Shown here: positions 1 through 28,640 of the stretch, in pieces
How positions within the stretch are numbered: the stretch's first letter is position 1
Layout of the letters: each line of letters begins with the position of its first letter
Virus record (IMG/VR): IMGVR_UViG_2526164597_000016
DNA length: 34,328 nucleotides
Source of the DNA: a virus
Taxonomy: Duplodnaviria > Heunggongvirae > Uroviricota > Caudoviricetes
Reading direction: 5' to 3' (one strand)
The notes under the pieces: model-generated
The model's input: only the letters and a program-made list of their open reading frames with translations
Database searches by the model: none
What the model was told of the DNA's origin: nothing
Made by a program: the position numbers and the translations under genes

Positions 1-981
1 TTATAACGTCACTCCGCCTTTTAGAGGATTCAGCGCGACGGCATTTTGCAGGTAGTCAGGCGCAAGGTGCGCATAGGCCATCGTCTGCTGAATGCTCGCA
101 TGTCCCAGAATCTGTTGCAGTGCGATTATATTGCCCCCATTCATCATGAAATGGCTTGCGAATGTATGCCGCAGGATGTGGGTTGCCTGATTGGGTGGTA
201 TATCTGGCTTCACTCTGCGTAAAATCCCGCAAAACTTCTCATAATCAACTTTGAATAATTTAGCGCTGGCCTCCTCTTTAACTTTTTTCTCCAGTTCCTC
301 AGAAATCGGCACGGTTCGCTTTTTACCGTTTTTGGTTTTCAGGAAGGTAACCCTGCAATTTGTAATCTGTGCTGGTTTTAGCGTGGCAACTTCCGTCCAT
401 CTTCCTCCAGTGCTCAGACATAAAAGTGCGACAAGTAAGTCATCACCATCCAGAACATTTAACAGTTTTTCGATTTCTGCTTTTTCCAGGAACGTCATTT
501 CAGGGTTGGCCTCCGCCAGTGGCGGCAGTCCGTGAATTGGGTGTTGCCCGGAAAATTCATCCAATTGAATTAATTTTGTGAACATGCCGGATAATCGGTA
601 CATGTCACGGTTTATCGTTGCGGCACTGATACCATCACGTAGTCGCATGGAACGATAATCCATCAAAGCTCTTTTGCTCATCCGGCTCACTGGTATATCA
701 CCTATGCCGCTGATGGTTTTGAGCAGATGATTAAACTCTTTTGTTCCATGCTCGTGGTTTTGCCCGTGATATTTCCACCAGATGTCCAGCAACTCACTCA
801 AAGTTCTGCGATCTGCTCGCTGACCTGCCCATTCTTTCTGGCTGGCGTAGGCGATTGTGTATCGCTCAAATGCTACAGCCTCAGCTTTTCTTTCAAATTT
901 CCTGCGGATGCGTTTTCCGTCGCGACCGCGAGGTCTAATGTCCACTTCATAGCGTCCATCATCGAGCTTCTTAATTGACAT
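1..981 (-). CDS. int: Tyrosine integrase (P2 Int-like); start taken at internal ATG 979-981 preceded by GAGGG; alternative start at 1011
   Basis: Translation contains the tyrosine recombinase motifs HILRHTF (HxxR) and AYAHLAP (catalytic Tyr); N-terminus MSIKKLDDGRYEVDIRP resembles P2 Int; stop codon at 1-3. Confidence 0.85.
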   Translation of the reverse strand: MSIKKLDDGRYEVDIRPRGRDGKRIRRKFERKAEAVAFERYTIAYASQKEWAGQRADRRTLSELLDIWWKYHGQNHEHGTKEFNHLLKTISGIGDIPVSRMSKRALMDYRSMRLRDGISAATINRDMYRLSGMFTKLIQLDEFSGQHPIHGLPPLAEANPEMTFLEKAEIEKLLNVLDGDDLLVALLCLSTGGRWTEVATLKPAQITNCRVTFLKTKNGKKRTVPISEELEKKVKEEASAKLFKVDYEKFCGILRRVKPDIPPNQATHILRHTFASHFMMNGGNIIALQQILGHASIQQTMAYAHLAPDYLQNAVALNPLKGGVTL

Positions 982-1050
982 AAGAAAGCCCTCTGACGCT
1001 GTATTCACCATCTTGGTAACAAATGGTGAAAATGTAATGTTTATAGAGTG

Positions 1051-1344
1051 TTAACCAGTCTGTTTTTCGGAGTGGTCTGATTCTGTTGGTTTTTGCCCAA
1101 TGTGTGCGAGAGCCGGCGCGATCTGACCAGCTTGTGGTGACGTATCACCAGTCATTAACCAGAGCGTATATTTTTTAAATAAAGGCGTATTTGTGACTCG
1201 CATAACGATGCTGAGACCAGGGTCTTTATGCCCACTTTCGTAATTTTTGACTGTTCCTAGAGCTATCCCGCTAATTTCGCTGAATTTCGCCTGTGTTAAG
1301 CCTTCTGCTTTCCTAATCGCTTTCAGTTTTTCGAATGTCTGCAT
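1051..1344 (-). CDS. C: Immunity repressor (P2 C-like, HTH XRE-type)
   Basis: 97 aa; HTH-like segment LTQAKFSEISGIALGTVKNYESG; sits directly upstream of int and faces the cox gene, as in P2. Confidence 0.8.
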   Translation of the reverse strand: MQTFEKLKAIRKAEGLTQAKFSEISGIALGTVKNYESGHKDPGLSIVMRVTNTPLFKKYTLWLMTGDTSPQAGQIAPALAHIGQKPTESDHSEKQTG

Positions 1345-1496
1345 TTGACAGTAACCTATTGGTGACTTATATTCCCGTCAAAAGGTTGTGTATTGGTGAC
1401 CTTTTGAGTGTGTTAGCCAGTCCCTAGAAAGGACAGGGGCGACCTAGAAGGGACTGGATCTAATAAGGGTAACACGAAAGCAAAAAGGGCTAATCA
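1345..1496. promoter_or_regulatory. Lysis/lysogeny switch region with candidate early promoter Pe and operator repeats
   Basis: TTGACA 1345-1350, 17-bp spacer, TATATT 1368-1373 reading rightward toward cox; direct repeat TATTGGTGAC at 1358-1367 and 1391-1400; inverted repeat CAGTCCCT 1418-1425 / AGGGACTG 1449-1456 with nested direct CCTAGAA at 1422-1428 and 1443-1449. Confidence 0.55.
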
Positions 1497-1769
1497 ATGG
1501 AAGTCAATGACTATGTGATTCAGTACCCGATTGATGCGGTACATACGGTTAAGTTTGCAGAGTTACTTGGTAAGCCAGAAACGGCTGTAGTCAAGATGGT
1601 AAAAGAGAATAAATTGCCAGTTATTGAGCTTCGTGATCCAAGTAAGCCGAACGCTCGTGTCGGTGAGAAGTGGGTTTTCATTCCAGAGTTTAATCGCGCT
1701 GTACGAGAGGCGTTTTATAACCGACCAGTTGAACAGCGTGATGCATGGCTTTTGTGGATGGGGTTGTGA
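1497..1769 (+). CDS. cox: Cox/Apl-like excisionase and early-operon regulator
   Basis: 90 aa; first gene of the rightward early operon opposite the repressor; the size and position match P2 Cox. Confidence 0.7.
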   Translation: MEVNDYVIQYPIDAVHTVKFAELLGKPETAVVKMVKENKLPVIELRDPSKPNARVGEKWVFIPEFNRAVREAFYNRPVEQRDAWLLWMGL

Positions 1770-1771
1770 TT

Positions 1772-1942
1772 ATGAGTGAACCGCGTTGTATTGCTCAGTT
1801 ACTGCGTAACGAAAGCCCCAGGGCGATTGACTTCACCATCACCCACGGTAAGGGGCGTAAGGGAATCATTATCCGCACCAAAAAACAGAGTCCGTTAAAA
1901 AAGGCTCTGACCTTTCTGAAAAGCCGGAGGGTCTGGAAATGA
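1772..1942 (+). CDS. Small early protein (P2 orf78 position), start assumed at ATG 1772
   Basis: In-frame ATG immediately after the cox stop (TGAttATG); the stop overlaps the B start (ATGA); basic protein. Confidence 0.4.
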   Translation: MSEPRCIAQLLRNESPRAIDFTITHGKGRKGIIIRTKKQSPLKKALTFLKSRRVWK

Positions 1943-2439
1943 CAGTGATGACGCTCAATCTCGTTGAAAAACAGCCAGCAGCTATGCGCCGGATAATTGG
2001 TAAGCATCTTGCCGTTCCTCGCTGGCAGGAGACATGTGATTATTATAATCAGATGATGGAGCGCGAACGGCTAACGGTTTGCTTTCATGCGCAGTTAAAA
2101 CAGCGTCACGCAACGATGCGTTTTGAAGAAATGAACGACGTCGAACGTGAACGGCTGGTTTGTGCAATTGATGAATTGCGTGGTGCATTCTCAAAACGCC
2201 GTCAGGTTGGCGCAAGTGAGTATGCATATATTAGTTTTTTAACAGTCAGTCAGCGTCGCACTTTATTTATGCATGCCGGATTGACTGAAAAAGAATTCAA
2301 CCAGCCATACTGGCGAATTAATGAAGAGTCATGTTACTGGCGTGATGCTTTATTCCGTGCATTACGTGAATTATTCAGCCTGTTTGAGTATGCACCGACA
2401 ATTCTGACGTCGGTAAAACCAGAGCAATATCTGCATTAA
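1939..2439 (+). CDS. B: Replication protein B-like (P2 gpB, DnaB-helicase loader)
   Basis: 166 aa, identical length to P2 gpB; position between cox and A. Confidence 0.7.
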   Translation: MTVMTLNLVEKQPAAMRRIIGKHLAVPRWQETCDYYNQMMERERLTVCFHAQLKQRHATMRFEEMNDVERERLVCAIDELRGAFSKRRQVGASEYAYISFLTVSQRRTLFMHAGLTEKEFNQPYWRINEESCYWRDALFRALRELFSLFEYAPTILTSVKPEQYLH

Positions 2440-2502
2440 ATAATTAACCAGAGTTTTTAACGCACTTAATTGTGCGGGGCTTCTTTTTGCCTGGAGAAAG
2501 TC

Positions 2503-2727
2503 ATGCATACAGTTTCTGAAAATCAGTGCGGTAAATACGCATTACTGCTGCAACAGGCCAGAACCGAAGCACAGGCCGACGCTGCGACGCGCTTTTCTTC
2601 TCATCTTGACGCCATGATTCGCCACATCACAAAGGCGGAGTTATCCCGCGTGGAGATAGTAGAGCTGCTCAGTCAGGAGTCGGAAAAATTTCACAATATC
2701 GGATTGTCTCGCGGGGAGGTGCTTTGA
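2503..2727 (+). CDS. Early hypothetical protein (P2 orf80 position)
   Basis: ATG 2503 preceded by GGAG at 2490-2493; stop overlaps the next start (ATGA at 2724-2727). Confidence 0.5.
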
Positions 2728-3026
2728 TGTCCTGTTCTCATTCTGTTGTATTACTGAATAACGCCTTAAAAATCGCCGTTATGAAAAATGGCGATTTGTC
2801 TCTTATTCAACTTTGCCTTGATAAAGAAAAACGCGACATAACTGAATCTGTTATCGCAATTTATCAGAATGAATTAAACCTCCTGTCTGATGTGGTCAAT
2901 TTACTTGTTAAACGCGCTGTATTCCACAAGCAAATTTCCTCAGTGGATGAACTGACAAAATTAACGACAGAACTTGCCAGTTATTGCGCTGATGTATCCA
3001 GAAAACTTAACGATAAAAGGAGCTGA
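2724..3026 (+). CDS. Early hypothetical protein (P2 orf81 position)
   Basis: 100-aa ORF translationally coupled to its neighbours; AGGAG precedes the next gene. Confidence 0.5.
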
Positions 3027-3028
3027 TA

Positions 3029-3253
3029 ATGCCGGACAACGTAGATTTTATTCAGGAACAACAGGCTGAATTACTGGAGCGGCAGATTAACGCGGCAAGG
3101 GTAAAACATTGCGGTGCTTCTGCGCTGGTTTGCGAAGAGTGTGACGCGCCAATACCTGCTGCCCGTCGTGCGGCTTATCCGTCAGCCACGCGTTGTGTTT
3201 CCTGTCAGTCAGTCTTTGAAGCAAAAAACAAACATTACCGGAGAACGGCATGA
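3029..3253 (+). CDS. TraR/DksA-family C4 zinc-finger protein (P2 orf82 position)
   Basis: 74 aa with CGASALVCEEC ... CVSC four-cysteine arrangement typical of TraR/DksA C4 zinc fingers. Confidence 0.65.
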   Translation: MPDNVDFIQEQQAELLERQINAARVKHCGASALVCEECDAPIPAARRAAYPSATRCVSCQSVFEAKNKHYRRTA

Positions 3254-3525
3254 GTATTCGTATTGAAATTGGCGAACGTTATGTCGTTACCAGTGACAGC
3301 TTTCAGTTTATTCTCCACGAGAAAAAGAGAGCGGAAAGCGGTAAAAACGCCGGTCAGGAATGGCTGTCGGTGGTTGGTTATTACCCGAAATTAAGCCAGC
3401 TCGTTTCCGGCCTGATGCATCACGATATTCTGACCGGAAGCGCAAAGTCTTTTGCTGATTTAAACGCGCAGGTTGAGCAACTCAGCAAGCGTTGTTCAGA
3501 GGCTTTTGGCTCATATGGCCGTTAA
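3250..3525 (+). CDS. Early hypothetical protein (P2 orf83 position)
   Basis: 91-aa ORF; ATGA overlap with the previous gene. Confidence 0.5.
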   Translation: MSIRIEIGERYVVTSDSFQFILHEKKRAESGKNAGQEWLSVVGYYPKLSQLVSGLMHHDILTGSAKSFADLNAQVEQLSKRCSEAFGSYGR

Positions 3526-5785
3526 AGCCTCCGGGCGTTTTGTCCCTCCGTCAGCATTTGCCGCAGGCACCGGTAAGACGACCGGTGCTTATGCATGGAA
3601 CGCGCCACGCGAGGCCGTCGGGCGCGAAAGACCCCTTACACGTGACGAGATGCGTCAGGTGCAAGGTGTTTTATCCACGATTAACCGCCTGCCTTACTTT
3701 TTGCGCTCGCTGTTTACTTCACGCTATGACTACATCCGGCGCAATAAAAGCCCGGTGCACGGGTTTTATTTCCTCACATCCACTTTTCAGCGTCGTTTAT
3801 GGCCGCGCATTGAGCGTGTGAATCAGCGCCATGAAATGAACACCGACACGTCGTTGCTGTTTCTGGCAGAGCGTGACCACTATGCGCGCCTGCCGGGAAT
3901 GAATGACAAGGAGCTGAAAAAGTTTGCCGCCCGTATCTCATCGCAGCTTTTCATGATGTATGAGGAACTCAGCGATGCCTGGGTGGATGCGCATGGCGAA
4001 AAAGAATCACTGTTTACGGATGAGGCTCAGGCTCACCTGTATGGTCATGTTGCTGGCGCTGCACGAGCTTTCAATATTTCCCCTCTCTACTGGAAAAAAT
4101 ACCGTAAAGGACAGATGACCACGAGGCAGGCATATTCTGCCATTGCCCGTCTGTTTAACGATGAGTGGTGGACTCATCAGCTTAAAGGCCAGCGTATGCG
4201 CTGGCATGAAGCGTTACTGATAGCTGTCGGGGAGGTCAATAAAGACCGTTCTCCTTATGCCAGTAAACACGCCATTCGTGATGTGCGTGCGCGCCGCCAG
4301 GCAAATCTGGAATTTCTTAAATCGTGTGATCTCGAAAACAGGGAAACCGGCGAGCGCATCGACCTTATCAGTAAGGTGATGGGCAGTATTTCTAATCCTG
4401 AAATTCGCCGGATGGAGCTGATGAACACCATTGCTGGTATTGAGCGTTACGCCGCAGCAGAGGGTGATGTGGGGATGTTTATCACGCTCACCGCGCCGTC
4501 AAAGTATCACCCGACACGTCAGGTTGGAAAAGGCGAAAGTAAAACCGTCCAGCTAAATCACGGCTGGAACGATGAGGCATTTAATCCAAAGGATGCGCAG
4601 CGTTATCTCTGCCGCATCTGGAGCCTGATGCGCACGGCATTCAAGGATAATGATTTACAGGTCTACGGTTTGCGTGTCGTCGAGCCACACCACGACGGAA
4701 CGCCGCACTGGCATATGATGCTTTTTTGTAATCCACGCCAGCGTAACCAGATTATCGAAATCATGCGTCGCTATGCGCTCAAAGAGGATGGTGACGAAAG
4801 AGGAGCCGCGCGAAACCGTTTTCAGGCAAAGCACCTTAACCGGGGCGGTGCTGCGGGATATATCGCGAAATACATTTCAAAAAACATCGACGGCTATGCA
4901 CTGGATGGTCAGCTCGATAACGATACCGGCAGGCCGCTGAAAGACACTGCCGCGGCTGTTACCGCATGGGCGTCAACGTGGCGCATTCCGCAATTTAAAA
5001 CGGTTGGCCTGCCGACAATGGGGGCTTACCGTGAACTACGCAAATTGCCTCGCGGCGTCAGCATTGCTGATGAGTTTGACGAACGCGTCGAGGCTGCACG
5101 CGCTGCCGCAGACAGTGGCGATTTTGCGCTGTATATCAGCGCGCAGGGTGGGGCAAATGTCCCGCGCGATTGTCAGACTGTCAGGGTCGCCCGTAGCCCG
5201 TCGGATGACGTTAACGAGTACGAGGAAGAGGTCGAGAGAGTGGTCGGCATTTACGCGCCGCATCTCGGCGCGCGTCATATTCATATCACCAGAACGACGG
5301 ACTGGCGCATTGTGCCGAAAGTTCCGGTCGTTCAGCCTTTGACTTTAAAAAGCGGCATCGCCGCGCCTCGGAGTCCTGTCAATAACTGTGGAAAACTCAC
5401 CGGTGGTGATACTTCGTTACCGGCTCCCACACCTTCTGAGCACGCCGCAGCAGTGCTTAATCTGGTTGATGACGGTGTTATCGAATGGAGTGACCCGGAG
5501 GTCGTGAGGGCGCTCAGAGGTGCATTAAAACACGGTCGGAGAACGCCAAGTCGTCAGCAAAGAAACGGAAGCCCGTTAAAACCACATGAAATTGCACCAT
5601 CGGCCAGACTGACCCGGTCGGAAAGAATGCAAATTACCCGTATCCGCGTTGACCTTGCTCAGAACGGTATCAGGCCGCAGCGATGGGAGCTTGAGGCGCT
5701 GGCGCGTGGCGCGACCGTAAATTATGATGGGAAAACGTTTTCATATCCGATTTCTGATGGTTGGGCGGGATTTGAAACAAACTAA
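3515..5785 (+). CDS. A: Rolling-circle replication initiator / endonuclease (P2 gpA-like); start taken at ATG 3515 (the ORF opens at TTG 3473)
   Basis: About 756 aa; N-terminus MAVKASGRFVPPSAFAAGTGK recognised as P2 gpA-like; position after B and the small ORFs. Confidence 0.85.
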   Translation: MAVKASGRFVPPSAFAAGTGKTTGAYAWNAPREAVGRERPLTRDEMRQVQGVLSTINRLPYFLRSLFTSRYDYIRRNKSPVHGFYFLTSTFQRRLWPRIERVNQRHEMNTDTSLLFLAERDHYARLPGMNDKELKKFAARISSQLFMMYEELSDAWVDAHGEKESLFTDEAQAHLYGHVAGAARAFNISPLYWKKYRKGQMTTRQAYSAIARLFNDEWWTHQLKGQRMRWHEALLIAVGEVNKDRSPYASKHAIRDVRARRQANLEFLKSCDLENRETGERIDLISKVMGSISNPEIRRMELMNTIAGIERYAAAEGDVGMFITLTAPSKYHPTRQVGKGESKTVQLNHGWNDEAFNPKDAQRYLCRIWSLMRTAFKDNDLQVYGLRVVEPHHDGTPHWHMMLFCNPRQRNQIIEIMRRYALKEDGDERGAARNRFQAKHLNRGGAAGYIAKYISKNIDGYALDGQLDNDTGRPLKDTAAAVTAWASTWRIPQFKTVGLPTMGAYRELRKLPRGVSIADEFDERVEAARAAADSGDFALYISAQGGANVPRDCQTVRVARSPSDDVNEYEEEVERVVGIYAPHLGARHIHITRTTDWRIVPKVPVVQPLTLKSGIAAPRSPVNNCGKLTGGDTSLPAPTPSEHAAAVLNLVDDGVIEWSDPEVVRALRGALKHGRRTPSRQQRNGSPLKPHEIAPSARLTRSERMQITRIRVDLAQNGIRPQRWELEALARGATVNYDGKTFSYPISDGWAGFETN

Positions 5786-5896
5786 CAATAATGATTGACA
5801 TGCTTGATTTTGTATTCACAAATCAAGCATCAAGTAAACATCGATGATGAGAAAGAACAATGCTACAATCCCCACAGCATTAGAAGGAGGTTTATC
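5786..5896 (+). promoter_or_regulatory. Promoter/operator region of the methyltransferase gene
   Basis: Perfect inverted repeat TGCTTGATTT 5801-5810 / AAATCAAGCA 5820-5829 (9-bp spacer) next to TTGACA 5795-5800; extended -10-like TGcTACAAT at 5861-5869; AGGAGG 5885-5890 six nt before the TTG start. Confidence 0.5.
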
Positions 5897-6946
5897 TTGA
5901 TTAAGGTTGTTGATTTATTCTGTGGCGCGGGTGGCTTGACTCACGGTCTTCAGAAGTCGGGGCTTAATGTAGTTGCAGGTTATGATATAGATGCAGCCTG
6001 TCGATTTGCCTATGAGACAAATAATAAATCACTCTTTGTCCAGAAAAGTGTTACAGACATTGAGGACGGCGAATTAGTTAAATATTTCGAAGGAGCGAAG
6101 GTTCGAGTTTTGGCTGGTTGTGCCCCATGCCAACCTTTTTCAAGCTATACCAATAGTGCTAAATTAGGGGTAGTACGTTCAAAAGATAAAAGATGGTCTT
6201 TGCTTTATAGCTTTGCTAAGCAAATTAAATTTGCAAAGCCAGATATTATTACAATGGAAAACGTTCCCCGAGTGGTGAATCATAAGGTTTTTAAGGACTT
6301 CATTAAGTCTCTTAAAAATGATGGCTATTTTGTTTGGTATGGGGTGGTGTTTTGTCCAGACTATGGAATGGCACAAAGTCGTTCAAGATTAGTGTTATTG
6401 GCATCAAAATATGGAGAAATAGAAATAATTCCACCAACTCATGAGAAGAATGATTATAAAACGGTGCGAGATATAATCGGTAATCTTCCTGAAATTAGTG
6501 CCGGTGCTGTTCACGCTGGAGATAAACTACATCGCTCTGCATCATTATCTGATATTAATATAAAAAGAATAATGGCATCAAAACCTGGTGGAACATGGCG
6601 TGATTGGCCAGAAGAGCTAAGAGCAAAATGTCATACAAAAGAAAGTGGTTCTACATATACTGCTGTATATGGGAGAATGTGTTGGGATAAACTTGGACCG
6701 ACAATTACAACTCAATGTATTGGATATGGGAATGGACGCTTTGGGCACCCTGTCCAAAATAGAGCATTAAGTTTAAGAGAGGCTGCGCTATTACAGTCAT
6801 TCCCAGAAAAGTATGAGTTTTGGCCTGATGATGTAAAAATTGAAATGAGAACAGTTGCGCGTTTAATAGGTAATGCTGTTCCTGTTAGGCTTGGTGAGGT
6901 CGTAGGTGAAACTATTTTAAAACATTTGTCAGAAATGAATATTTAA
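5897..6946 (+). CDS. DNA (cytosine-5)-methyltransferase (Dcm-like), probable TTG start
   Basis: Motif I DLFCGAGG, motif IV PCQPFS (catalytic Cys), motif VI ENV, motif VIII QSRSR, motif X GNAV; the ORF-track N-terminal extension from 5795 translates the promoter/palindrome and is probably not coding. Confidence 0.85.
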   Translation: MIKVVDLFCGAGGLTHGLQKSGLNVVAGYDIDAACRFAYETNNKSLFVQKSVTDIEDGELVKYFEGAKVRVLAGCAPCQPFSSYTNSAKLGVVRSKDKRWSLLYSFAKQIKFAKPDIITMENVPRVVNHKVFKDFIKSLKNDGYFVWYGVVFCPDYGMAQSRSRLVLLASKYGEIEIIPPTHEKNDYKTVRDIIGNLPEISAGAVHAGDKLHRSASLSDINIKRIMASKPGGTWRDWPEELRAKCHTKESGSTYTAVYGRMCWDKLGPTITTQCIGYGNGRFGHPVQNRALSLREAALLQSFPEKYEFWPDDVKIEMRTVARLIGNAVPVRLGEVVGETILKHLSEMNI

Positions 6947-6958
6947 AACTTATGTCAT

Positions 6959-6980
6959 CCCCCTGTCAAAAAACAGGGGG
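6959..6980. terminator. Hairpin between convergent genes, probable bidirectional terminator
   Basis: CCCCCTG (6959-6965), loop TCAAAAAA, CAGGGGG (6974-6980), lying between the methyltransferase stop (6946) and the ATPase stop (6987). Confidence 0.5.
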
Positions 6981-6986
6981 GTATAA

Positions 6987-8945
6987 TTAGATTCCCTCAA
7001 CTATTTTCATAATTCTAGCTGCATCATTCTTTTTGTCTTGATATTCAGCATAGGCTTGTTTTGATTGCACGATTAGGTCATTATATGTCAATATTTTTCC
7101 ATTGATAGAAAGTAATTGCATATTTATAAAGTGTTGGTTCTCTTGTAAATATCCAGAGCCAACCAGGAATATTACTTCTATATGCGGTATATTTCCACCT
7201 GGGCAATTTTTAGGGTTATTGGAGAACCATTGTGTCGTTGCCTGTACATATTTATTACCTTGTGCGACTAGGTTCATTATATCTGGGTGCACTTTAGGTC
7301 GTTTCATCTCAATAATTACATGCTTGCCAGAAACGGTTTTGAAAGCGATATCAATACGAGCACCGCTAGCAGCATCAGGGTTTATCTGTTTTAGTTCCTT
7401 GGTCAATGTTTGCTCCATAACAGATGTGCCTGTGACTCTTTCCCATGAAGGATCCAATAACCATAAATGATCATATAAATACATTTGTACAGCTCTTTCA
7501 AGCTGATTTTCATCAGTTATTTTTTGGAATTTTTCAATTACTTTAAGGCGTTGCGAAGTAATTTCATAAAACATGCTTGCTTCAATGTCATTGACAGATG
7601 CAAATACATCTTTAAAATTTTCTGATTGAAGGTTGCTTATTTTATCTAATGCATCAAGGTTGTCTTGAATTCTAAGTCTTTCAAAGGCTAATACCGTATT
7701 TTTTAATACGGTTTTTCTTGCTGCTTTTTGTTCTTCCTCATTACCAGAAAAACGGAATGTGTTTACTCGTCCAATTAACTTTTCGGCACTTTCTCTCTCA
7801 TGTTTTTTGAGAGAATTCAGCCATTCACTTACTATTGGAGTATTGCTTTTAACTTCATTTACTCCTTTTTCGCGTCTCCATTTATCCCAATCTTTATCGA
7901 TTAGTTGTAGCGTTCTTTCCAGAAAACCTTTAAGTACAGGGTATCTTGGATCATTCTGTTGTAGTTTTTGACGAGAAGATGTTGCCATATCAGGCTTTTC
8001 GTTATCATCTAGAAAATCGGCGACTATTTCACCGACCAGATAATTGGTGAATACTTTAGCACTTCCAAATTCTAATAATATGTCCTCCTCAAAAACACGT
8101 CCGTGAGAGATTACAGTAATGCTGTTGTTAGATATTTCAGGGTCTTTCTTTAACTGTGATGGCTTAACTACACTGCCAATGTACCCACTAACTTTTACAT
8201 CTTTTCCTTCAAAGGTAATAGTATTTGGTAATATGTTTTTTTGTGTGATGTTTGTGCAGGATTTTATCCTTTCAGGGTCGGATTCGCCAAATTCCCAAAT
8301 GAACTCGAGATCTGAAAGGAAATCTCTATCTGCCGGTGTAATATCGGTCCCATTAATTTTAACTGTAAAGTTATGGTTGGGGCCAATAATGCTAAATCGA
8401 CGAGCTATTCGCTTTCTGAGGTAAGTTTGAGTCCTATCAATGGCTTTTTTTAGTTCAAATAATTTAATTGTAGTGCCGTAAGCAAGATTTTCGGGTATTT
8501 CAAGGGAGTCAGCAATATAGTTTTTTGATTCTTTGATACTTTGCTGTAAATCTTTGACATCTACCTCAAAGGCCTGAGGCTGTTCCCCCTTTTTGTACGA
8601 ATAAACTTGGATTTTATTGGCAAGTGAAAACATGGCAAGCTTACCAATACCTTTTCTGCCCATAACTTGACGTTTTAGATGATCGCTTTTGGCTCTTCCA
8701 TGTTCCCTGCGAGCATAACCGACTTTTAGGAACTTATTAATAATGTCATCTTTAGACATGCCATGACCATCATCTTTAATGATGACCTCTCCTTTCTCAA
8801 CATCAAGTGTAATTTCTACATTTTGAGCATCTGCATCCCATGCATTTGATATAATCTCAGTTAGTACCGCGGGAGTATTGGAATAGAGACTCATCCCTAG
8901 GTGATTTAGCACATTCAAATCAATTTTAATTTCGAAATCTGACAT
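6987..8945 (-). CDS. GHKL (Bergerat-fold, MORC/MutL-like) ATPase with C-terminal PD-(D/E)xK-like nuclease motif; candidate defence or restriction effector
   Basis: N-terminal ATPase motifs EIISNAWDA (N box), DDGHGM (G1), GRKGIGKLA (G2); C-terminal RIDIAF ... HVIIEMKRP fits a D ... E-x-K nuclease signature; AAGGA precedes the ATG; gene is AT-rich by inspection. Confidence 0.7.
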   Translation of the reverse strand: MSDFEIKIDLNVLNHLGMSLYSNTPAVLTEIISNAWDADAQNVEITLDVEKGEVIIKDDGHGMSKDDIINKFLKVGYARREHGRAKSDHLKRQVMGRKGIGKLAMFSLANKIQVYSYKKGEQPQAFEVDVKDLQQSIKESKNYIADSLEIPENLAYGTTIKLFELKKAIDRTQTYLRKRIARRFSIIGPNHNFTVKINGTDITPADRDFLSDLEFIWEFGESDPERIKSCTNITQKNILPNTITFEGKDVKVSGYIGSVVKPSQLKKDPEISNNSITVISHGRVFEEDILLEFGSAKVFTNYLVGEIVADFLDDNEKPDMATSSRQKLQQNDPRYPVLKGFLERTLQLIDKDWDKWRREKGVNEVKSNTPIVSEWLNSLKKHERESAEKLIGRVNTFRFSGNEEEQKAARKTVLKNTVLAFERLRIQDNLDALDKISNLQSENFKDVFASVNDIEASMFYEITSQRLKVIEKFQKITDENQLERAVQMYLYDHLWLLDPSWERVTGTSVMEQTLTKELKQINPDAASGARIDIAFKTVSGKHVIIEMKRPKVHPDIMNLVAQGNKYVQATTQWFSNNPKNCPGGNIPHIEVIFLVGSGYLQENQHFINMQLLSINGKILTYNDLIVQSKQAYAEYQDKKNDAARIMKIVEGI

Positions 8946-9130
8946 ATAGTCGTTCCTTGCTGAGAGTTCATTTTAGTTTCATGCAATCAATAGGTTAGGC
9001 TGAAGATAAAACCTTAAGATAACCAAAGCAAGTGTTCATTAGCGGCTTTGTTTCATGACATGATGTGTGTCGCTTTTTGCATGAAACTGCATTTGTTTCT
9101 TATATCTGCTCTTTTTACATACTGCTAGTG

Positions 9131-9152
9131 TTGACATGGCTTTGACATGGCT
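9131..9152. repeat. Perfect tandem 11-bp direct repeat TTGACATGGCT x2 just upstream of cos
   Basis: Read directly: 9131-9141 and 9142-9152 are identical. Confidence 0.8.
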
Positions 9153-9188
9153 GTGCAACCGCATTAAAACCGCCCCATGAAGCGGGCG

Positions 9189-18557: not shown

Positions 18558-18587
18558 TTTTATCCAGACAGAGGCTGATGCGCAATT

Positions 18588-18622
18588 AAACATTGAGCGG
18601 CCATGCTGGTCGCTCAATGTTT
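18588..18622. terminator. Perfect 12-bp stem hairpin between S and the reverse-strand cargo gene; possible bidirectional terminator
   Basis: AAACATTGAGCG 18588-18599, 11-nt loop, CGCTCAATGTTT 18611-18622; there is no clean U-tract on either side. Confidence 0.4.
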
Positions 18623-18628
18623 AGAGGT

Positions 18629-19414
18629 TTATGAGTGATTTTTATTTGATGCTTTGTATTCTAAAACCTTCTTATTGGCGTAAAAGAATTTTGTATATGA
18701 CAGGAATATAACCAGACCTGAAGTGAAATAGACGAGGGATAGTATTAATAATGCTTTTTTGTGACTGTTATTATCTTTAATCTCCTGGCTTAACCATTCG
18801 GAGTCCTCCTCGTTTAGCTGTAAGAGCTTATTGCAGGCGATTTCAGGAAGTGTGTCTTTTATAAATACGTTTTGCAGTCTCTTGCAATCGGCAAGGCTAT
18901 AAGTTTTATTAAATTCAACTGCTTTATTTTTGAAGGATAAAAGAACTTTGTCACTATAAACATAGTACATCATATTTTTATATGGTATGCCTATGGCATC
19001 TCTTACTATAGCGGATTGTTTGTTGTGTATATAACATGCGAAGAGAATATAAATAATACTGGCCAGAATTACAATTATTGTTTTAATTATGTGTGGTGGT
19101 TTTGTTATGTCACCCCAGATGCGAGCAAGGAAAAAATACGATGTTTTTAGTTTTCCATCAATCAGTCCCTGCTGTATCATTCTCACATTTTCAATGCCTG
19201 ATACATTGATTCCGTTAATTATTTTAAATAGTTGAATGTCGCGCCACTCGCGGTCAAGTCTTTTTAATTTTTTGTCTGAATATCCAAAATTGAAATAATG
19301 TGCAATAAGCCTCATAAGGTTACTTTTACCAAAGCTAAAAAATGCTAATACTGCAAAGCTACAAAGGAAAAAAACGATTAGCCCCCACACATTAGTCACA
19401 TTATAGCTGACCAT
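18629..19414 (-). CDS. Accessory (moron) membrane protein of unknown function, about 3 TM helices (P2 orf30 position)
   Basis: 261 aa, AT-rich and on the opposite strand to the flanking tail genes; strong AAGGAG before the ATG; hydrophobic segments VWGLIVFFLCSFAVLAFFSF, IIKTIIVILASIIYILFACYI, ALLILSLVYFTSGLVIFLSY. Confidence 0.6.
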   Translation of the reverse strand: MVSYNVTNVWGLIVFFLCSFAVLAFFSFGKSNLMRLIAHYFNFGYSDKKLKRLDREWRDIQLFKIINGINVSGIENVRMIQQGLIDGKLKTSYFFLARIWGDITKPPHIIKTIIVILASIIYILFACYIHNKQSAIVRDAIGIPYKNMMYYVYSDKVLLSFKNKAVEFNKTYSLADCKRLQNVFIKDTLPEIACNKLLQLNEEDSEWLSQEIKDNNSHKKALLILSLVYFTSGLVIFLSYTKFFYANKKVLEYKASNKNHS

Positions 19415-19497
19415 TACGCTCTCCTTGAATGTTGTCTGGTAGTTCTACAAATGAATCCAGATAGCATAACTTTTATATATTGTGCAATCTCACATGC
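19415..19497. promoter_or_regulatory. Candidate late promoter for the V operon and promoter of the divergent cargo gene
   Basis: TATATA at 19474-19479 upstream of V; partial Ogr-like dyad TGT-N11-ACA at 19433-19449, which is not the canonical N12 spacing. Confidence 0.3.
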
Positions 19498-21923: not shown

Positions 21924-24173
21924 ATGAGCACAAAATTCAGAACCGTTATCACCACTGCTGGTGCAGCAAAGCTGGCAGCGGCAACCGCGCCGGGAGGGCG
22001 GAAGGTCAACATTACCACGATGGCCGTCGGGGATGGCGGTGGTAAATTGCCTGTCCCGGATGCCGGACAGACCGGGCTTATCCACGAAGTCTGGCGACAT
22101 GCGCTGAACAAAATCAGCCAAGACAAACGAAACAGTAATTATATTATCGCAGAGCTGGTTATTCCGCCGGAGGTGGGCGGTTTCTGGATGCGTGAGCTTG
22201 GCCTGTACGATGATGCTGGAACGTTAATTGCCGTGGCGAACATGGCTGAAAGTTATAAGCCAGCTCTTGCCGAAGGCTCAGGGCGTTCGCAGACCTGCCG
22301 CATGGTCATCATCGTCAGCAGTGTGGCCTCAGTGGCGCTGACCATTGACACCACAACGGTGATGGCAACGCAGGATTACGTTGATGACAAAATTGCAGAA
22401 CATGAACAGTCACGACGTCACCCGGACGCCTCGCTGACCGCCAAAGGTTTTACTCAGTTAAGCAGTGCGACCAACAGCACGTCTGAAACACTCGCCGCAA
22501 CACCAAAAGCGGTAAAAGCAGCATATGACCTTGCTAACGGGAAATACACTGCACAGGACGCCACCACAGCGCGAAAAGGCCTTGTCCAGCTCAGTAGTGC
22601 CACCAACAGCACGTCTGAAACGCTCGCCGCAACACCAAAAGCGGTAAAAGCAGCATATGACCTTGCTAACGGGAAATACACTGCACAGGACGCCACCACC
22701 GCGCGAAAAGGCCTTGTCCAGCTCAGTAGCGCCACCAACAGCGATTCTGAAACGCTTGCGGCAACGCCAAAGGCGGTTAAGACAGCGTATGACCTTGCTA
22801 ACGGGAAATACACTGCACAGGATGCCACCACAGCGCGAAAAGGTCTTGTCCAGCTCAGTAGCGCCACCAACAGTGATTCTGAAACGCTGGCTGCAACACC
22901 AAAAGCGGTGAAGTCTGCCTATGACAATGCTGAAAAACGTCTTCAGAAAGATCAGAACGGTGCGGATATTCCTGATAAAGGACGCTTCCTGAGTAACATT
23001 AATGTTTACAGCAAAGGTGAAGTGGATAAGAAAAAGGGAATGCGAAAGTATTCGTTTGCAGCCCCTGCAAATGTCGTTGCCGGGAAGTGGTATCCCGTTA
23101 TCTTTCGCCGTGCTGCCAGCCTTTCAGGAGAAATGGCATCCCGCGTCGTTATTTCAACTGGTTGTTATAACGGCGATTATGTAATGAATAACTGCGAGTT
23201 TAATGGCATGGTTATGCCCGGAGGCTGGACCGATCGTGGTTCATATGCGGCAGGTTATTTCTGGACGTATCAGACTAATGAGCGTTCAATCCATTCCATT
23301 GTTACAAGCCTGAAAGATGATGATGTATGTAGTGTTTTTTATGTTGAAGCCAGAGCTTTCCCTGTACAAATTCTTGCAGAGGAAGGGCTAACGGTTATTG
23401 TTCCGACAGAGGATTATGTCGTCGGTCAAACGACATATAAGTGGGGGGCAACTAATCCCGCTACAGAAAGCACGAACGCACAGGCTATTCTGGATTTTAA
23501 AAATGGGCGCGGTTATTACTGCTCACATCCATTTATTTCCAGCCTTTCAGGAAATGCTGCAACAGCAACGAAGTTAGCGAATGCAAGAAATATTAATGGT
23601 GTCAGATTTGATGGTTCTGCCGATATAAATATTAATACACTGGTATCCAGAAACCGTGTTACTGCATTAGGTGGGAGCTCAAAGGGTACACCAGGTATTC
23701 AGATGTATGAGGCATACAACAATGGCTACCCAACAGCCTATGGTAATGTGCTTCATCTCACTGGCGTAACCGCAGTAGGAGAGGGTGAGTTACTTATTGG
23801 CTGGAGTGGAACCAGCGGTGCTCATGCTCCGGCATATATTCGCTCCCGACGAGATACCACAGATGCTAACTGGTCTGGATGGGCGCAACTATATACAACT
23901 GCTCATAAACCCTCAGCGGGAGATGTTGGTGCATACACCAAAGCTGAGTCAGATTCACGTTATGTGAGAGACATGCGACTGGGCGGTGCATCTACATATA
24001 AACCAGCAAATAATGGTACTACATGGACGCATCAGGCTCCGTCAGGTTGCGTATATACCGGCATTATTGTTCAGGATACCGGCTCAAACTCTGCCGATAA
24101 CATTGGTGGCGTATATTACAGGCCGGTGCAGAAATACATTAACGGGACATGGTATAACGTGGCGCAGGTATAA
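21924..24173 (+). CDS. H: Tail fibre protein H with internal tandem repeats
   Basis: 749 aa; conserved N-terminal tail-fibre region, repeat block, then divergent C-terminal receptor-binding part; followed by G. Confidence 0.85.
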   Translation: MSTKFRTVITTAGAAKLAAATAPGGRKVNITTMAVGDGGGKLPVPDAGQTGLIHEVWRHALNKISQDKRNSNYIIAELVIPPEVGGFWMRELGLYDDAGTLIAVANMAESYKPALAEGSGRSQTCRMVIIVSSVASVALTIDTTTVMATQDYVDDKIAEHEQSRRHPDASLTAKGFTQLSSATNSTSETLAATPKAVKAAYDLANGKYTAQDATTARKGLVQLSSATNSTSETLAATPKAVKAAYDLANGKYTAQDATTARKGLVQLSSATNSDSETLAATPKAVKTAYDLANGKYTAQDATTARKGLVQLSSATNSDSETLAATPKAVKSAYDNAEKRLQKDQNGADIPDKGRFLSNINVYSKGEVDKKKGMRKYSFAAPANVVAGKWYPVIFRRAASLSGEMASRVVISTGCYNGDYVMNNCEFNGMVMPGGWTDRGSYAAGYFWTYQTNERSIHSIVTSLKDDDVCSVFYVEARAFPVQILAEEGLTVIVPTEDYVVGQTTYKWGATNPATESTNAQAILDFKNGRGYYCSHPFISSLSGNAATATKLANARNINGVRFDGSADININTLVSRNRVTALGGSSKGTPGIQMYEAYNNGYPTAYGNVLHLTGVTAVGEGELLIGWSGTSGAHAPAYIRSRRDTTDANWSGWAQLYTTAHKPSAGDVGAYTKAESDSRYVRDMRLGGASTYKPANNGTTWTHQAPSGCVYTGIIVQDTGSNSADNIGGVYYRPVQKYINGTWYNVAQV
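22455..22982 (+). repeat. Four tandem copies of a 132-bp (44-aa) unit inside H (phage tail-fibre repeat)
   Basis: Units start at 22455, 22587, 22719 and 22851 (LSSATNS(T/D)SETLAATPKAVKAAYDLANGKYTAQDATTARKGLVQ); the last copy degenerates. Confidence 0.85.
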
Positions 24174-24176
24174 TTT

Positions 24177-24704
24177 ATGCAGCATTTAAAAAATATTACG
24201 GCGGGTAATCCAAAAACGGTTGAACAATATCAATTGACAAAGAACTTTGATGTTGTCTGGTTTTTTTCAGAAGATGGTAAGAACTGGTACGAAGAACAAA
24301 AGTATTTTGCTGATGACACGATAAAAATAGCGTACGACAAAGATAATATCATCCGCTATGTGGAAAAGGATGTGACAGCTATCAGACCGGATGGATTAAG
24401 TGTTGTTGAAGTGGCGGATATTACTGCTAACCGACGGGCGGACATTTCAGGGAACTGGATGTTTAAGGATGGCACAGTGATCAAACGAATTTATACGGCA
24501 GAGGAATTGCAACTGCAGGCAGAAAACCGGAAAGCCAGACTTCTTGCAGATGCTGAATCCGTGATTTTGCCGCTAGAGCGTGCTGTCAGGCTGAACATGG
24601 CAACAGAGGAGGAGCGCACACGGCTGGAGGCTTGGGAACGCTACAGCGTTGTGGTCAGTCGTGTGGATCCTGCAAATCCTGAATGGCCGGAAATGCCGCA
24701 ATAA
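24177..24704 (+). CDS. G: Tail fibre assembly chaperone G
   Basis: 175 aa, same as P2 gpG; immediately downstream of H. Confidence 0.8.
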
Positions 24705-24985
24705 GTTGTATGAACTCTGGTGTGAGCTTACATATCTATGGCACAGAGTAAAGCCTAATCTGACAGTCCGCTCTGTGCCAGGAGCGGAAGTTGCCAAGAG
24801 AACTCTTGCAAAGGTATGATAACGTAGGTGCTAAATAATCATGAACCATAATAAATTAAAGGTTTTTAAGTTAACTCTATGGCGTTTCTTTTGCATGATG
24901 ATTTTTTATTTATTATATAAAGCTTAAATATACATAATATTTAGCTTCATTTTTTTAGGTATTTTAAAGATTTAGAGGAATGTGA

Positions 24986-25921
24986 ATGGCTACTTATGCT
25001 TCTTATTTACCAGAATCACAAATTATCACTTTGTGCAAGGATTTCCCAGCGTTTACTGATCCTGAAAAATTAGATGGATTCATTAATCCAGAACAGTTTG
25101 GCGTGTTTTTTCATGAGTGGATTCATTTTCTTCACAATATTTCCACAATTAATGGGTTTTCTATTTTTTGCACGCAAAACATCCTGTGGTCTAATTTTCG
25201 CTGGGCAATGGACAATCAGGATGTATGTCTTGGTTCAAATGACATGGATCCAGCACATATCGAATCAAACAAAAATTTTCTCAGTTACATTCGTTCCAAT
25301 AGGAGTCTGCATAAATGTAACTTACCTTATTATGTAAAAGTAAACGACTTGTATTTTGAGGATGCAATAATCCATGACATGGAGGTTGCTGACGGTAGTG
25401 TTATATGTACATCATTAATAAAGTGTAGAATTTCTCATTCTGAAAACAAATACGATCTAGATTTAGGCGTGCTTGAAATACTTGAATCCGCAGCTTTTAT
25501 GCTTGAATGTAAGTGTATTAATGCGATGAATGGCTTCCCTCAAGAGGCACCCTTTTATCCGTATCATACTATCAAGGGCTTAGCAGCGAAAATTGCTCCG
25601 TCATTAAATGATGAAGATATTATTTGTTGTATGTTAGCTTCTTTGCAATCTAATAACCCTCCCCAAGTATTATTCAATCTACTACATAAATGTGAATTAT
25701 TACATTCTGATTGTAGGTATGAACATCTAGTGGCGGAGGTGAAAAAACAATTAAGCGAACAAGATCAAATAATAAGCGAGTCACTTAATCAAATAATTCA
25801 AATGATTCCTGTTGATGAACCGATGGGAAACTTTATCAAGCTTACTCTTAACAGAATAAGTAACAATTTGAACTATAGAAAGCAAAAACCGTTTTTTGAG
25901 TTAGATATAATAAAAAAATAG
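24986..25921 (+). CDS. Accessory protein with HExxH motif (possible zinc metallopeptidase-like), in the P2 Z/fun position
   Basis: 311 aa; AT-rich; GAGGA six nt before the ATG; motif FFHEWIHFLHN contains H-E-x-x-H. Confidence 0.6.
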   Translation: MATYASYLPESQIITLCKDFPAFTDPEKLDGFINPEQFGVFFHEWIHFLHNISTINGFSIFCTQNILWSNFRWAMDNQDVCLGSNDMDPAHIESNKNFLSYIRSNRSLHKCNLPYYVKVNDLYFEDAIIHDMEVADGSVICTSLIKCRISHSENKYDLDLGVLEILESAAFMLECKCINAMNGFPQEAPFYPYHTIKGLAAKIAPSLNDEDIICCMLASLQSNNPPQVLFNLLHKCELLHSDCRYEHLVAEVKKQLSEQDQIISESLNQIIQMIPVDEPMGNFIKLTLNRISNNLNYRKQKPFFELDIIKK

Positions 25922-25938
25922 CAGAAAAAACTGAGTTT

Positions 25939-26328
25939 ATGAATGAAGTAATACAGAAATTCGGTGGTTGCACTATCATCCAGGTAAGACATGGAGATGA
26001 TAATGAACCACAGCGTGATATTATGTATGACTTTTGCTTACCTGAAAATAATGATTCAATTTTATTTGGTTCGAAAATGCTACGCGCTTGTTTTCACTTT
26101 ATATTTATTCACTTTAAACTTTCTGGTGAAATCATGAAGACAGAAGAATTAAATATTTCGCCGCGTAATAAATGCCCATTTTATACTGTTTGCTGTGCAT
26201 CAATTCGAGCTAATAATAGTAATATCTGCGCTGAATCCCCTTGGAAATCAATGTCTATTGATGACAACAAAGGTTGTTATTATGCAGCAGCGATTAAAGC
26301 TACTAACCCACCAGTTTTGCCGGATTAA
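25939..26328 (+). CDS. Small Cys-rich accessory protein, co-oriented 17 bp downstream of the HExxH gene
   Basis: 129 aa with eight Cys (GGCTII, DFCLPE, RACFHF, CPFYTVCCA, NICAES, KGCYY); AT-rich; weak ribosome-binding site. Confidence 0.5.
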   Translation: MNEVIQKFGGCTIIQVRHGDDNEPQRDIMYDFCLPENNDSILFGSKMLRACFHFIFIHFKLSGEIMKTEELNISPRNKCPFYTVCCASIRANNSNICAESPWKSMSIDDNKGCYYAAAIKATNPPVLPD

Positions 26329-26463
26329 GAATAGTGTTCTATCTGATAAATATAAAATATTTAAGGTCAGGTCTGCTTATCGCTCAAAGCAGACTGTCAG
26401 ATTTGATAACGTTTGGGCTATGTAAACCGTCAGTTGGAAAATGAGTGAGTGCAAGTCAGGACA

Positions 26464-26490
26464 GGCGGGCGGATTGCCCGCCTTTTCTTT
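26464..26490 (+). terminator. Rho-independent terminator closing the accessory operon
   Basis: GGCGGGC 26464-26470, loop GGATT, GCCCGCC 26476-26482, then TTTTCTTT. Confidence 0.7.
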
Positions 26491-26586
26491 ATCTGTTGTT
26501 TCATCCACTGACCAGCCAGGTCAAATAGCGCCTCATGCTCTGCACAACAGAAAATAGTTGCACCCATTAACCACGGAGTTAAACGG

Positions 26587-27777
26587 ATGAGTGACTATCA
26601 TCACGGCGTGCAGGTGCTGGAGATTAACGACGGCACACGCGTCATTTCCACCGTATCCACTGCCATTGTCGGCATGGTCTGCACGGCCAGCGATGCGGAT
26701 GCGGAAACCTTCCCCCTCAATAAACCTGTGCTGATTACCAATGTGCAGAGTGCAATTGCAAAGGCCGGTAAAAAAGGCACGCTGGCGGCATCGTTGCAGG
26801 CCATCGCTGACCAGTCAAAACCGGTCACCGTTGTCGTGCGCGTGGAAGACGGCACCGGTGATGACGAGGAAACGAAACTCGCGCAGACCGTTTCTAATAT
26901 TATCGGCACCACTGACGAAAACGGTCAGTACACCGGACTGAAAGCCCTGCTGGCGGCGGAGTCGGTAACCGGTGTTAAACCGCGTATTCTTGGTGTGCCG
27001 GGGCTGGATACCAAAGAGGTGGCTGTTGCACTGGCATCAGTCTGTCAGAAGCTGCGCGCTTTCGGATATATCAGCGCATGGGGCTGTAAGACCATTTCCG
27101 AGGTGAAAGCCTACCGCCAGAATTTCAGCCAGCGTGAGCTGATGGTCATCTGGCCGGATTTCCTCGCATGGGATACGGTCACCAGTACCACCGCCACCGC
27201 GCATGCCACCGCCCGTGCGCTGGGTCTGCGCGCTAAAATCGACCAGGAGCAGGGCTGGCATAAAACGCTGTCCAACGTTGGGGTAAACGGTGTTACCGGC
27301 ATCAGCGCATCTGTATTCTGGGATTTGCAGGAGTCCGGCACCGATGCTGACCTGCTTAACGAGTCAGGCGTCACTACGCTGATTCGCCGTGACGGTTTCC
27401 GCTTCTGGGGTAACCGTACCTGCTCTGATGACCCGCTGTTCCTCTTTGAAAACTACACCCGCACCGCGCAGGTGCTGGCCGACACGATGGCTGAGGCGCA
27501 CATGTGGGCGGTGGACAAGCCCATCACCGCAACGCTGATTCGCGACATCGTTGACGGCATCAATGCCAAATTCCGTGAGCTGAAAACAAACGGCTATATC
27601 GTGGATGCGACCTGCTGGTTCAGCGAAGAATCCAACGATGCGGAAACCCTCAAGGCCGGAAAACTGTATATCGACTACGACTATACCCCGGTGCCTCCTC
27701 TCGAAAACCTGACCCTGCGCCAGCGTATTACTGATAAATACCTGGCAAGTCTGGTCACCTCGGTTAACAGCAATTAA
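26587..27777 (+). CDS. FI: Tail sheath protein FI
   Basis: 396 aa, same as P2 gpFI. Confidence 0.9.
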   Translation: MSDYHHGVQVLEINDGTRVISTVSTAIVGMVCTASDADAETFPLNKPVLITNVQSAIAKAGKKGTLAASLQAIADQSKPVTVVVRVEDGTGDDEETKLAQTVSNIIGTTDENGQYTGLKALLAAESVTGVKPRILGVPGLDTKEVAVALASVCQKLRAFGYISAWGCKTISEVKAYRQNFSQRELMVIWPDFLAWDTVTSTTATAHATARALGLRAKIDQEQGWHKTLSNVGVNGVTGISASVFWDLQESGTDADLLNESGVTTLIRRDGFRFWGNRTCSDDPLFLFENYTRTAQVLADTMAEAHMWAVDKPITATLIRDIVDGINAKFRELKTNGYIVDATCWFSEESNDAETLKAGKLYIDYDYTPVPPLENLTLRQRITDKYLASLVTSVNSN

Positions 27778-27789
27778 GGAGCCTGACCG

Positions 27790-28308: not shown

Positions 28309-28364
28309 TTTTCATCCGGTCAGCCTGGCTGACCGGTTAACCCCGATTCAGAAGTGAGAAAACC

Positions 28365-28640
28365 ATGAACAAAGAAAACGTCATTACCCTGGACAATCCG
28401 GTCAAACGTGGTGAGCAGGTTATCGAACAGGTCACGCTGATGAAACCCAATGCCGGGACGCTACGCGGTGTCAGTCTGGCTGCAGTCGCGAACTCCGAAG
28501 TCGATGCACTGATTAAAGTGCTGCCGCGCATGACGGCACCGATGCTGACCGAGCAGGAAGTCGCCGCGCTGGAACTGCCTGACCTTGTGGCGCTGGCCGG
28601 TAAGGTGGTCGGTTTTTTGTCGCCGAACTCGGTGCAGTGA
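28365..28640 (+). CDS. E: Tail assembly chaperone E
   Basis: 91 aa; lies between the tube and tape-measure genes; contains a slippery site near its 3' end. Confidence 0.8.
   Translation: MNKENVITLDNPVKRGEQVIEQVTLMKPNAGTLRGVSLAAVANSEVDALIKVLPRMTAPMLTEQEVAALELPDLVALAGKVVGFLSPNSVQ

Follow-up and report, generated by a model that had tools for sequence, protein, structure and literature searches.

Assignment of the C-cox intergenic region of a P2-like Escherichia coli prophage to the WPhi-type (immunity class III) lysis-lysogeny switch

Positions 1345-1496 of the window (the whole stretch of 34,328 nucleotides that was analysed; IMG/VR record IMGVR_UViG_2526164597_000016) almost certainly constitute the lysis-lysogeny transcriptional switch of a WPhi-type (immunity class III), P2-like Escherichia coli prophage at cpxP-fieF, and no evidence contradicting this explanation was found in the analysis. 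The assignment draws on sequence identity, the anatomy of the region and an attP copy of the Cox box, which come from the present analysis, and on published WPhi experiments for the promoter starts, C binding and repression, and Cox repression; the exact 12-mer of the published Cox repeat, the Pc hexamers and the manner in which Cox blocks Pc are what we infer. The switch is already known in experimental detail for WPhi and, as it stands, contains nothing new: its dissection reportedly goes back to 1999 and has used primer extension, operator mutagenesis, EMSA, SPR and DNA-bending assays, in work credited to Liu & Haggard-Ljungquist (1999) and Ahlgren-Berg et al. (2007, 2009).

Window 1000-1800 was 99.9% identical to coliphage WPhi (AJ245959, AY135739/NC_005056) and, at the same value, to approximately 20 further phage records; over window 1300-1520, which includes the C-cox intergenic region, identity to WPhi was 100%. 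On a larger scale, window 1-5772 was aligned with WPhi 22712-28486 at 97.5%, structural genes come after this segment, and the whole window is, judged by its sequence, a P2-like prophage. The version of int annotated in WPhi (981 nt) corresponds to window 1-981, and the start of the window coincides exactly with the int stop codon. The host gene fieF forms the right flank of the window; the prophage's own left flank lies outside it, and the left neighbour of an identical switch in E. coli 120899 is cpxP. The prophage is located at the WPhi site, cpxP-fieF, in E. coli. Among complete E. coli genomes, 260 of 5,426 (approximately 5%) carry the WPhi-type switch, as a single chromosomal copy. WPhi itself (Peduovirus Wphi, immunity class III; AJ245959, NC_005056) shares the integration locus, C, Cox, intergenic DNA, Pe, O1/O2, Cox repeat and Pc, with no difference within window 1345-1496, and differs from the prophage in cargo regions (window 5773-9188, 18560-19497, approximately 22650-24118, and 24782-26371). 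The C and Cox proteins were each 100% identical to their WPhi counterparts, compared with 46% (over 93 aa) and 45% identity, respectively, to those of P2. Coordinates of the features are collected in Table 1.

Table 1. Features of the C-cox region, in window coordinates
Feature	Position	Strand	Basis and details
int (integrase)	1-1011	-	ORF; Pfam Int_N and Phage_integrase; AJ245959 annotation
C immunity repressor, 97 aa, HTH	1051-1344	-	ORF; Pfam HTH_3
Pe -35 hexamer, TTGACA	1345-1350	+	Sequence; AJ245959 Pe feature is window 1343-1379
C half-site O1, TATTGGTGAC, in Pe spacer	1357-1366	+	Published O1 sequence (PMC1904263)
Pe -10 hexamer, TATATT	1368-1373	+	Promoter scan
Inverted repeat A, TCAAAAGGT (1378-1386) / ACCTTTTGA (1399-1407)	1378-1407	.	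9/9 complementary, 12-nt loop
C half-site O2, TATTGGTGAC, approximately +12 to +21 of Pe	1391-1400	+	34 bp from O1 (PMC1904268)
Inverted repeat B, CCAGTCCCT (1417-1425) / AGGGACTGG (1449-1457)	1417-1457	.	9/9 complementary
Probable Cox box 1, CCTAGAAAGGACAGG; 12-nt core 1423-1434	1423-1437	+	Sequence; 12-nt repeat statement in PMC5009727
Probable Cox box 2, CCTAGAAGGGACTGG; 12-nt core 1443-1454	1443-1457	+	Sequence; attP copy
Pc promoter	1461-1497	-	Promoter feature of AJ245959
cox, 90 aa: lytic repressor and excision directionality factor	1497-1769	+	ORF; Pfam Phage_Cox, E = 9e-24

A near-consensus rightward promoter abutting the repressor start codon had been described in the first-pass annotation, and this TTGACA-N17-TATATT element proved to be the mapped Pe of WPhi. 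With its 17-nt spacer it scored 11/12 and was the sole sigma-70-like match in a consensus scan of 1000-1800; its -35 hexamer adjoins CAT (1342-1344), the complement of the C start codon. In WPhi, the Pe and Pc transcripts share 82 nt, and the Pc start lies 60 nt from O2 (PMC1904263), which places the starts near 1380 (Pe) and 1461 (Pc); from these distances and the end of the annotated Pe feature, A1380 is the probable start of the Pe transcript.

The target of WPhi C is published as two directly repeated 10-bp half-sites, 34 bp apart from centre to centre and flanking the Pe -10 (PMC1904263, PMC1904268), with TATTGGTGAC as O1 (PMC1904263). Exact copies of TATTGGTGAC in the 34-kb window were restricted to 1357-1366 and 1391-1400, which reproduces the 34-bp spacing; the earlier proposal that repeats flanking the -10 are repressor operators thus coincides with the published half-sites, whereas the position it gave for the first copy, 1358-1367, is off by one nucleotide. 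Of 5,000 dinucleotide shuffles of the 152-bp region, 0.6% contained an exact direct repeat of 10 nt or longer. The protein encoded beside these sites is of WPhi type in length (97 aa), domain (Pfam HTH_3) and sequence (identical to WPhi C). WPhi C is a dimer that bends its target; replacement of O1 abolished repression in vivo, C still bound the remaining half-site in vitro, and relief of repression by point mutations required both half-sites to be mutated (PMC1904263, PMC1904268). The synthetic Pe/operator insert of pEE938, an active and C-repressible promoter (PMC1904263), is exactly window 1345-1400.

Imperfect half-sites were also recorded. Matches with up to one mismatch numbered 7 in the window (1.7 expected), among them a 9/10 copy, TATTTGTGAC, at 1188-1197 (+), in the same orientation, inside C and 169 bp to the left of O1; this copy lies outside the published EMSA fragments, whose left primer starts at 1307. 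Natural variants of the half-sites were found in the first two bases, as CATTGGTGAC for O1 and AATTGGTGAC or TGTTGGTGAC for O2, at loci L005 (STYP1), L003 and L004 (Yersinia phages vB_YpM_22 and 476A), L038, L051 and L054, and the remainder of the half-sites, ATTGGTGAC / TTGGTGAC, was invariant.

For Pc, the hexamers were assigned as a probable -35 of TTGATT (1497-1492) and a probable -10 of TGTTAC (1474-1469), with a start near 1461. Both are weak (4/6 and 3/6 matches), and Pc was missed by the consensus promoter scan of 1000-1800; its -35 as assigned adjoins the cox ATG, in mirror image of the arrangement of Pe and C. The face-to-face pair of Pe and Pc with its 82-nt overlap was recognised through identity to the annotated record, and Pe also through the scan. 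Taken together with the WPhi experiments, the layout suggests a switch in which C (leftward) and cox (rightward) diverge and the two promoters between them face each other, such that a strong early promoter Pe (start near 1380) would drive cox and the replication genes and a weak Pc (minus strand, start near 1461) would drive C and int. C dimers on the half-sites O1 and O2, both of which would be needed in vivo, would bend the DNA and shut Pe; Cox on the CCTAGAA(A/G)GGAC repeat just downstream of the Pc start would shut Pc, and Cox at a related box in the attP P' arm would direct excision.

The motif CCTAGAA, present twice in the second repeat system, opens a direct repeat of 15 nt, CCTAGAAAGGACAGG / CCTAGAAGGGACTGG, whose copies are 13/15 identical and 20 bp apart; the 12-nt cores, CCTAGAAAGGAC and CCTAGAAGGGAC, match at 11/12 positions and have the form CCTAGAA(A/G)GGAC. 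According to PMC5009727, which cites Ahlgren-Berg et al. 2009, the target of WPhi Cox in the Pe-Pc region is a direct repeat of 12 nt, and the P2 cox-boxes are not bound by WPhi Cox. Besides the operators, the CCTAGAAAGGAC / CCTAGAAGGGAC family is the only direct repeat in the Pe-Pc region, and for this reason the published Cox repeat is probably 1423-1434/1443-1454. A Phage_Cox protein (by Pfam) and an imperfect 12-nt direct repeat (11/12) thus both occur here, the match of the latter to the published repeat being the probable one. Because Cox is also the excision factor, its site was expected again at attP. A search of the whole WPhi genome for CCTAGAAGGGACTGG with up to 3 mismatches returned only the two switch boxes and CCTATAAGGGACTGG at 22642-22656, a 14/15 copy in the attP P' arm, with the core on one side and the Int P' arm sites on the other, at a position equivalent to the annotated Cox-binding site of P2; CCTATAAGGGACTGG was also found in attL of the E. 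coli 120899 prophage. Within the window no further copies of the 12-mer or 15-mer were found as candidate distal Cox sites, the attP/attL copy lying just beyond its left end. Cox would block Pc by occlusion, or by oligomer wrapping as proposed for P2 Cox (PMC3936717). Among natural variants, the Cox boxes were invariant except for one A-to-G change in box 2 (the L048 group).

Leaders of relatives were compared using 80 IMG/VR loci with Cox 77-100% identical to WPhi Cox, together with phages R18C and P37, which yielded 41 distinct Pe-to-cox leaders with the C-type layout. All 41 had a -35 of TTGACA, TTGACT or TTGATT abutting or overlapping CAT, with a -10 approximately 17 nt further on. The putative operators were wholly different between leader types, and the cox-proximal segment was far more conserved than the operators. 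This segment contains box-like units, roughly T-N-T-A-R-A-M-G-G, with a phasing of approximately 10-11 bp (for example GCTAGAACGTT / TTCAAACGGTT / TAGAAAGGGCT), and the phased box-like repeats were retained where Cox was 77-86% identical yet the operators were unrelated; the retention of these units while operators differ links the second repeat system with Cox and not with C. A scan of genome contigs also returned distant C homologues of 36-69% identity; mainly the enterobacterial ones have the same promoter and half-site layout, at spacings of approximately 22-34 bp, and L010-L012, L020, L027 and L032 (enterobacterial and related) have the layout in common and not the operator sequence; these homologues serve as context and are no test of WPhi's own sites.

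Two further observations were made in the relatives. In the leaders upstream of cox of several heteroimmune relatives (L079, L035 (phage P37), L072 and L092), the Pe-spacer sequence, compared by eye, recurs downstream in inverted rather than direct orientation, as in L079 (GGTTCCTACTTTGAGAC ... GTCTAAAGGTAAGAACC, 14/17) and P37 (12/15); according to the accessible literature, direct repeats seem to serve all C repressors of P2-like phages (PMC2995052). Phage fiAA91-ss (L006, 2093-3593) has the WPhi int, C and switch, with an IS21 (istA/istB) inserted in cox, and its interpretation as a mosaic breaking inside cox was rejected in favour of this insertion.

Two perfect inverted repeats were identified in the region. 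The inverted repeat CCAGTCCCT / AGGGACTGG (repeat B) that the first-pass annotation had reported in the second repeat system is present as described; it encloses the Cox repeat and spans approximately +38 to +78 of the Pe RNA and approximately +5 to +45 of the Pc RNA. Repeat A, absent from that description, encloses O2 and begins at the Pe transcript start. An inverted repeat of at least 9 nt arose by chance in 3.7% of shuffles of the 152-bp region, which has two. Heteroimmune relatives have both repeats in corresponding positions, and the arms differ in sequence; examples of repeat A arms are CCCGAAAAGGT / ACCTTTTCGGG, CAAGGTTC / GAACCTTG and CTCAATGGTTTTA / TAAAACCATTGAG. A GGATC (GATC Dam site; window 1455-1459), next to the Pc start, follows the right arm of repeat B in nearly all of 39 aligned leaders. 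In P2 (L008, approximately 2431-2458) the Pe-Pc overlap has a perfect 8-bp inverted repeat, TTTAGTGC ... GCACTAAA, and a stem in the transcript overlap may be general to P2-like switches.

In predicted RNA folds, the stem of repeat B was seen on both strands. The stem of repeat A formed when the minus strand (Pc direction) was folded and when the first 44 nt of the Pe leader were folded alone, and it was absent from the 132-nt Pe-strand fold. When RNAalifold was applied to a raw MAFFT alignment of 39 leaders, no structure was predicted; the arms were visibly misaligned, and alignment-free tests were therefore used, namely per-sequence folds and comparison of arm complementarity in cis and in trans. 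The minimum-energy fold of the first 44 transcribed nt was a 5'-terminal hairpin in nearly all of 36 distinct heteroimmune types. The arms of repeat A were more complementary within than between sequences, both in longest run (8.86 vs 6.86) and in duplex energy (-14.2 vs -10.3 kcal/mol), and 0 of 20,000 permutations reached the observed run and energy values, a test inflated by the relatedness of the sequences. For repeat B, a core stem CCAGYC / GRCTGG is kept in relatives, with double changes at position 4 (G-C to A-T), 5 (T-A to C-G) and 6 (C-G to T-A or G-C); a permutation p of approximately 0.01 for these compensatory changes is likewise inflated by relatedness, and fold z-scores of repeat B were -2 to -4.5 in most types. 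No match was obtained in an Rfam scan of 1000-2000 at E values up to 1, and no terminator in a scan of 1000-1800; repeat B as an intrinsic terminator was rejected, there being no T-run after the stem. The stems are unmentioned in the accessible P2 and WPhi literature.

Several other readings of the region were weighed. The first-pass annotation had noted that the repressor N-terminus differs from P2 C and had proposed that the prophage has its own immunity specificity; the former was borne out by the 46% identity, and heteroimmunity to P2 was judged correct, but the latter is refuted because the sequence is identical to that of WPhi. The distance from P2 C is what favoured a new specificity particular to this prophage; set against it are the identity of C, Cox and the complete intergenic region to WPhi and the presence of the same switch in 260 complete E. 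coli genomes and many phage records, so that its probability is negligible, and on sequence the immunity type is that of WPhi class III, other than the class I of P2. The same annotation had offered the second repeat system as a Cox/Apl binding array or as the Pc promoter region. The first of these fits the published Cox repeat. The second, that the repeats are Pc itself, would suit their place in the part of the intergenic region nearer to cox, where Pc has to be, and is very improbable: Pc is annotated on the minus strand at 1461-1497, its published start 60 nt from O2 (PMC1904263) leaves the repeats downstream, and no promoter-like hexamers were found by the scan at 1417-1457 on the minus strand. 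The boxes lie at approximately +5 to +39 of Pc, which makes the repeat a probable Cox operator and not Pc. On a further reading, Cox would bind three sites, the additional one being an inverted box formed by the left arm of repeat B (1417-1425, minus-strand sequence AGGGACTGG), and the inverted repeat would be a by-product of box orientation. The 9-mer AGGGACTGG occurs 4 times in the WPhi genome (0.14 expected), 3 of the 4 falling in the two known Cox target regions, and both orientations of P2 cox-boxes occur within one target (PMC3936717); on the other hand, the left arm matches the 15-nt box in its 3' nine bases only (11/15), beyond the 3-mismatch search, the accessible literature (PMC5009727) mentions a direct repeat only, and in relatives the arms stay complementary while the boxes between them have the other consensus given above. 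A third box is accordingly regarded as unlikely.

It is also possible, although we lean against it, that the inverted repeats act as RNA, as stem-loops at the Pe 5' end (repeat A) and at approximately +5 of Pc (repeat B), both inside the 82-nt sense/antisense overlap; the stems could then stabilise the mRNAs or take part in an antisense interaction of the two transcripts, and such a function would be compatible with the assignment of the same DNA as protein sites. The predicted folds, the near-universal 5'-terminal hairpin, the better pairing of repeat A arms within sequences, and the z-scores and compensatory changes of repeat B are in its favour. So is the published observation that Pe-cat output was approximately 100-fold lower with native flanks than with the minimal 1345-1400 insert, which is without both complete stems, an effect of the flanks that was left unexplained (PMC1904263); the drop might be related to the stems or to the convergent Pc. 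Against an RNA-level role stand the modest z-scores of window folds (Pe strand, -1.7; Pc strand, -2.5), the failure of RNAalifold to return a structure from the raw alignment, and the lack of an Rfam family at the repeats. Covariation is moreover also expected of symmetric protein sites on DNA, palindromic operators in some relatives supply part of the repeat A signal, and related sequences are not independent, which inflates the permutation tests. The more specific proposal, modelled from these folds, that the repeat pair represents conserved, covarying RNA stem-loops and the 82-nt sense/antisense overlap a structured RNA module is considered doubtful.

The WPhi-type assignment was also compared with other known switches. 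P2 (immunity class I) resembles WPhi in its small HTH C, winged-helix Cox and face-to-face Pe and Pc, and in a Pe -35 that adjoins the C start, direct half-sites that flank the Pe -10 and binding of Cox to the attP P' arm. It differs in half-sites of 8 bp (GTTTAGAT) placed 22 bp apart (10 bp and 34 bp in WPhi), in a transcript overlap of approximately 35 nt (82 in WPhi), and in its Cox, which uses at least six cox-boxes of 9 bp, TTAAA(G/C)NC(A/C), and, unlike WPhi Cox, activates P4 PLL (PMC5009727). The switch is not of class I: GTTTAGAT is absent from 1345-1496 and C is only 46% identical. P2 Hy dis has C and Cox of the same family and direct-repeat half-sites, here of 8 bp, 26 bp apart and flanking the -35 rather than the -10 (PMC1904268). 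Phage 186 is alike in its convergent promoters, pR and pL, and in Apl, a repressor and excision factor that acts on helically phased direct repeats (PMC7498355); unlike WPhi, it has a two-domain CI of 196 aa that binds inverted repeats and distal sites, and a CII-dependent establishment promoter (PMC1904263). The window is not of the 186 type: its repressor has 97 aa and a single HTH domain, its operators are direct repeats, no cII is annotated in the rightward operon, and the gene order (cox, orf78, B) is that of P2 and WPhi. Lambda Xis-type directionality factors are likewise small winged-helix proteins that assemble head-to-tail on direct repeats and bend DNA (PMC7498355); lambda Xis has no part in the lysis-lysogeny promoters, whereas Cox couples both functions.

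Outside the switch, several segments of the prophage were characterised. Window 5773-9188, after gene A, has no WPhi match and contains a C5 cytosine DNA methylase at 5795-6946 (+; Pfam DNA_methylase, E = 1e-55) and, convergent with it at 6987-8945 (-), a protein of 652 aa with a HATPase_c_3 domain and matches to PADLOC 'REase_II' models (E = 2e-91); by these matches the 5795-8945 pair looks like a restriction-modification system carried as cargo at a P2 hot spot. Three ORFs (261 aa at 18629-19414 (-), 311 aa at 24986-25921 (+) and 129 aa at 25939-26328 (+)) lie in segments that WPhi lacks, between tail genes S and V and between G and FI; no Pfam or PADLOC match was found for them, and they may be cargo or defence genes.

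The practical value of the result is one of annotation, in that the prophage is assigned to WPhi immunity class III and, on this sequence basis, should confer immunity against WPhi and phages closely related to it, and none against P2. Comparative by-products of possible interest for work on P2-like switches, each a small increment, are the Cox box shared by the switch and the attP P' arm, the helically phased arrays in relatives, the covarying inverted repeats at both transcript starts and the inverted operator arrangement in several relatives. The sole candidate for novelty is that a pair of inverted repeats is conserved where the two transcripts start, and we regard this as a modest, tentative lead. 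5'-terminal stem-loops are known mRNA stabilisers in E. coli. If the RNA reading were true, the stems might account for the lower Pe output with native flanks reported in 2007 (PMC1904263), and the P2-like switch would have a post-transcriptional layer, acting through mRNA stabilisation or through kissing-loop antisense pairing.
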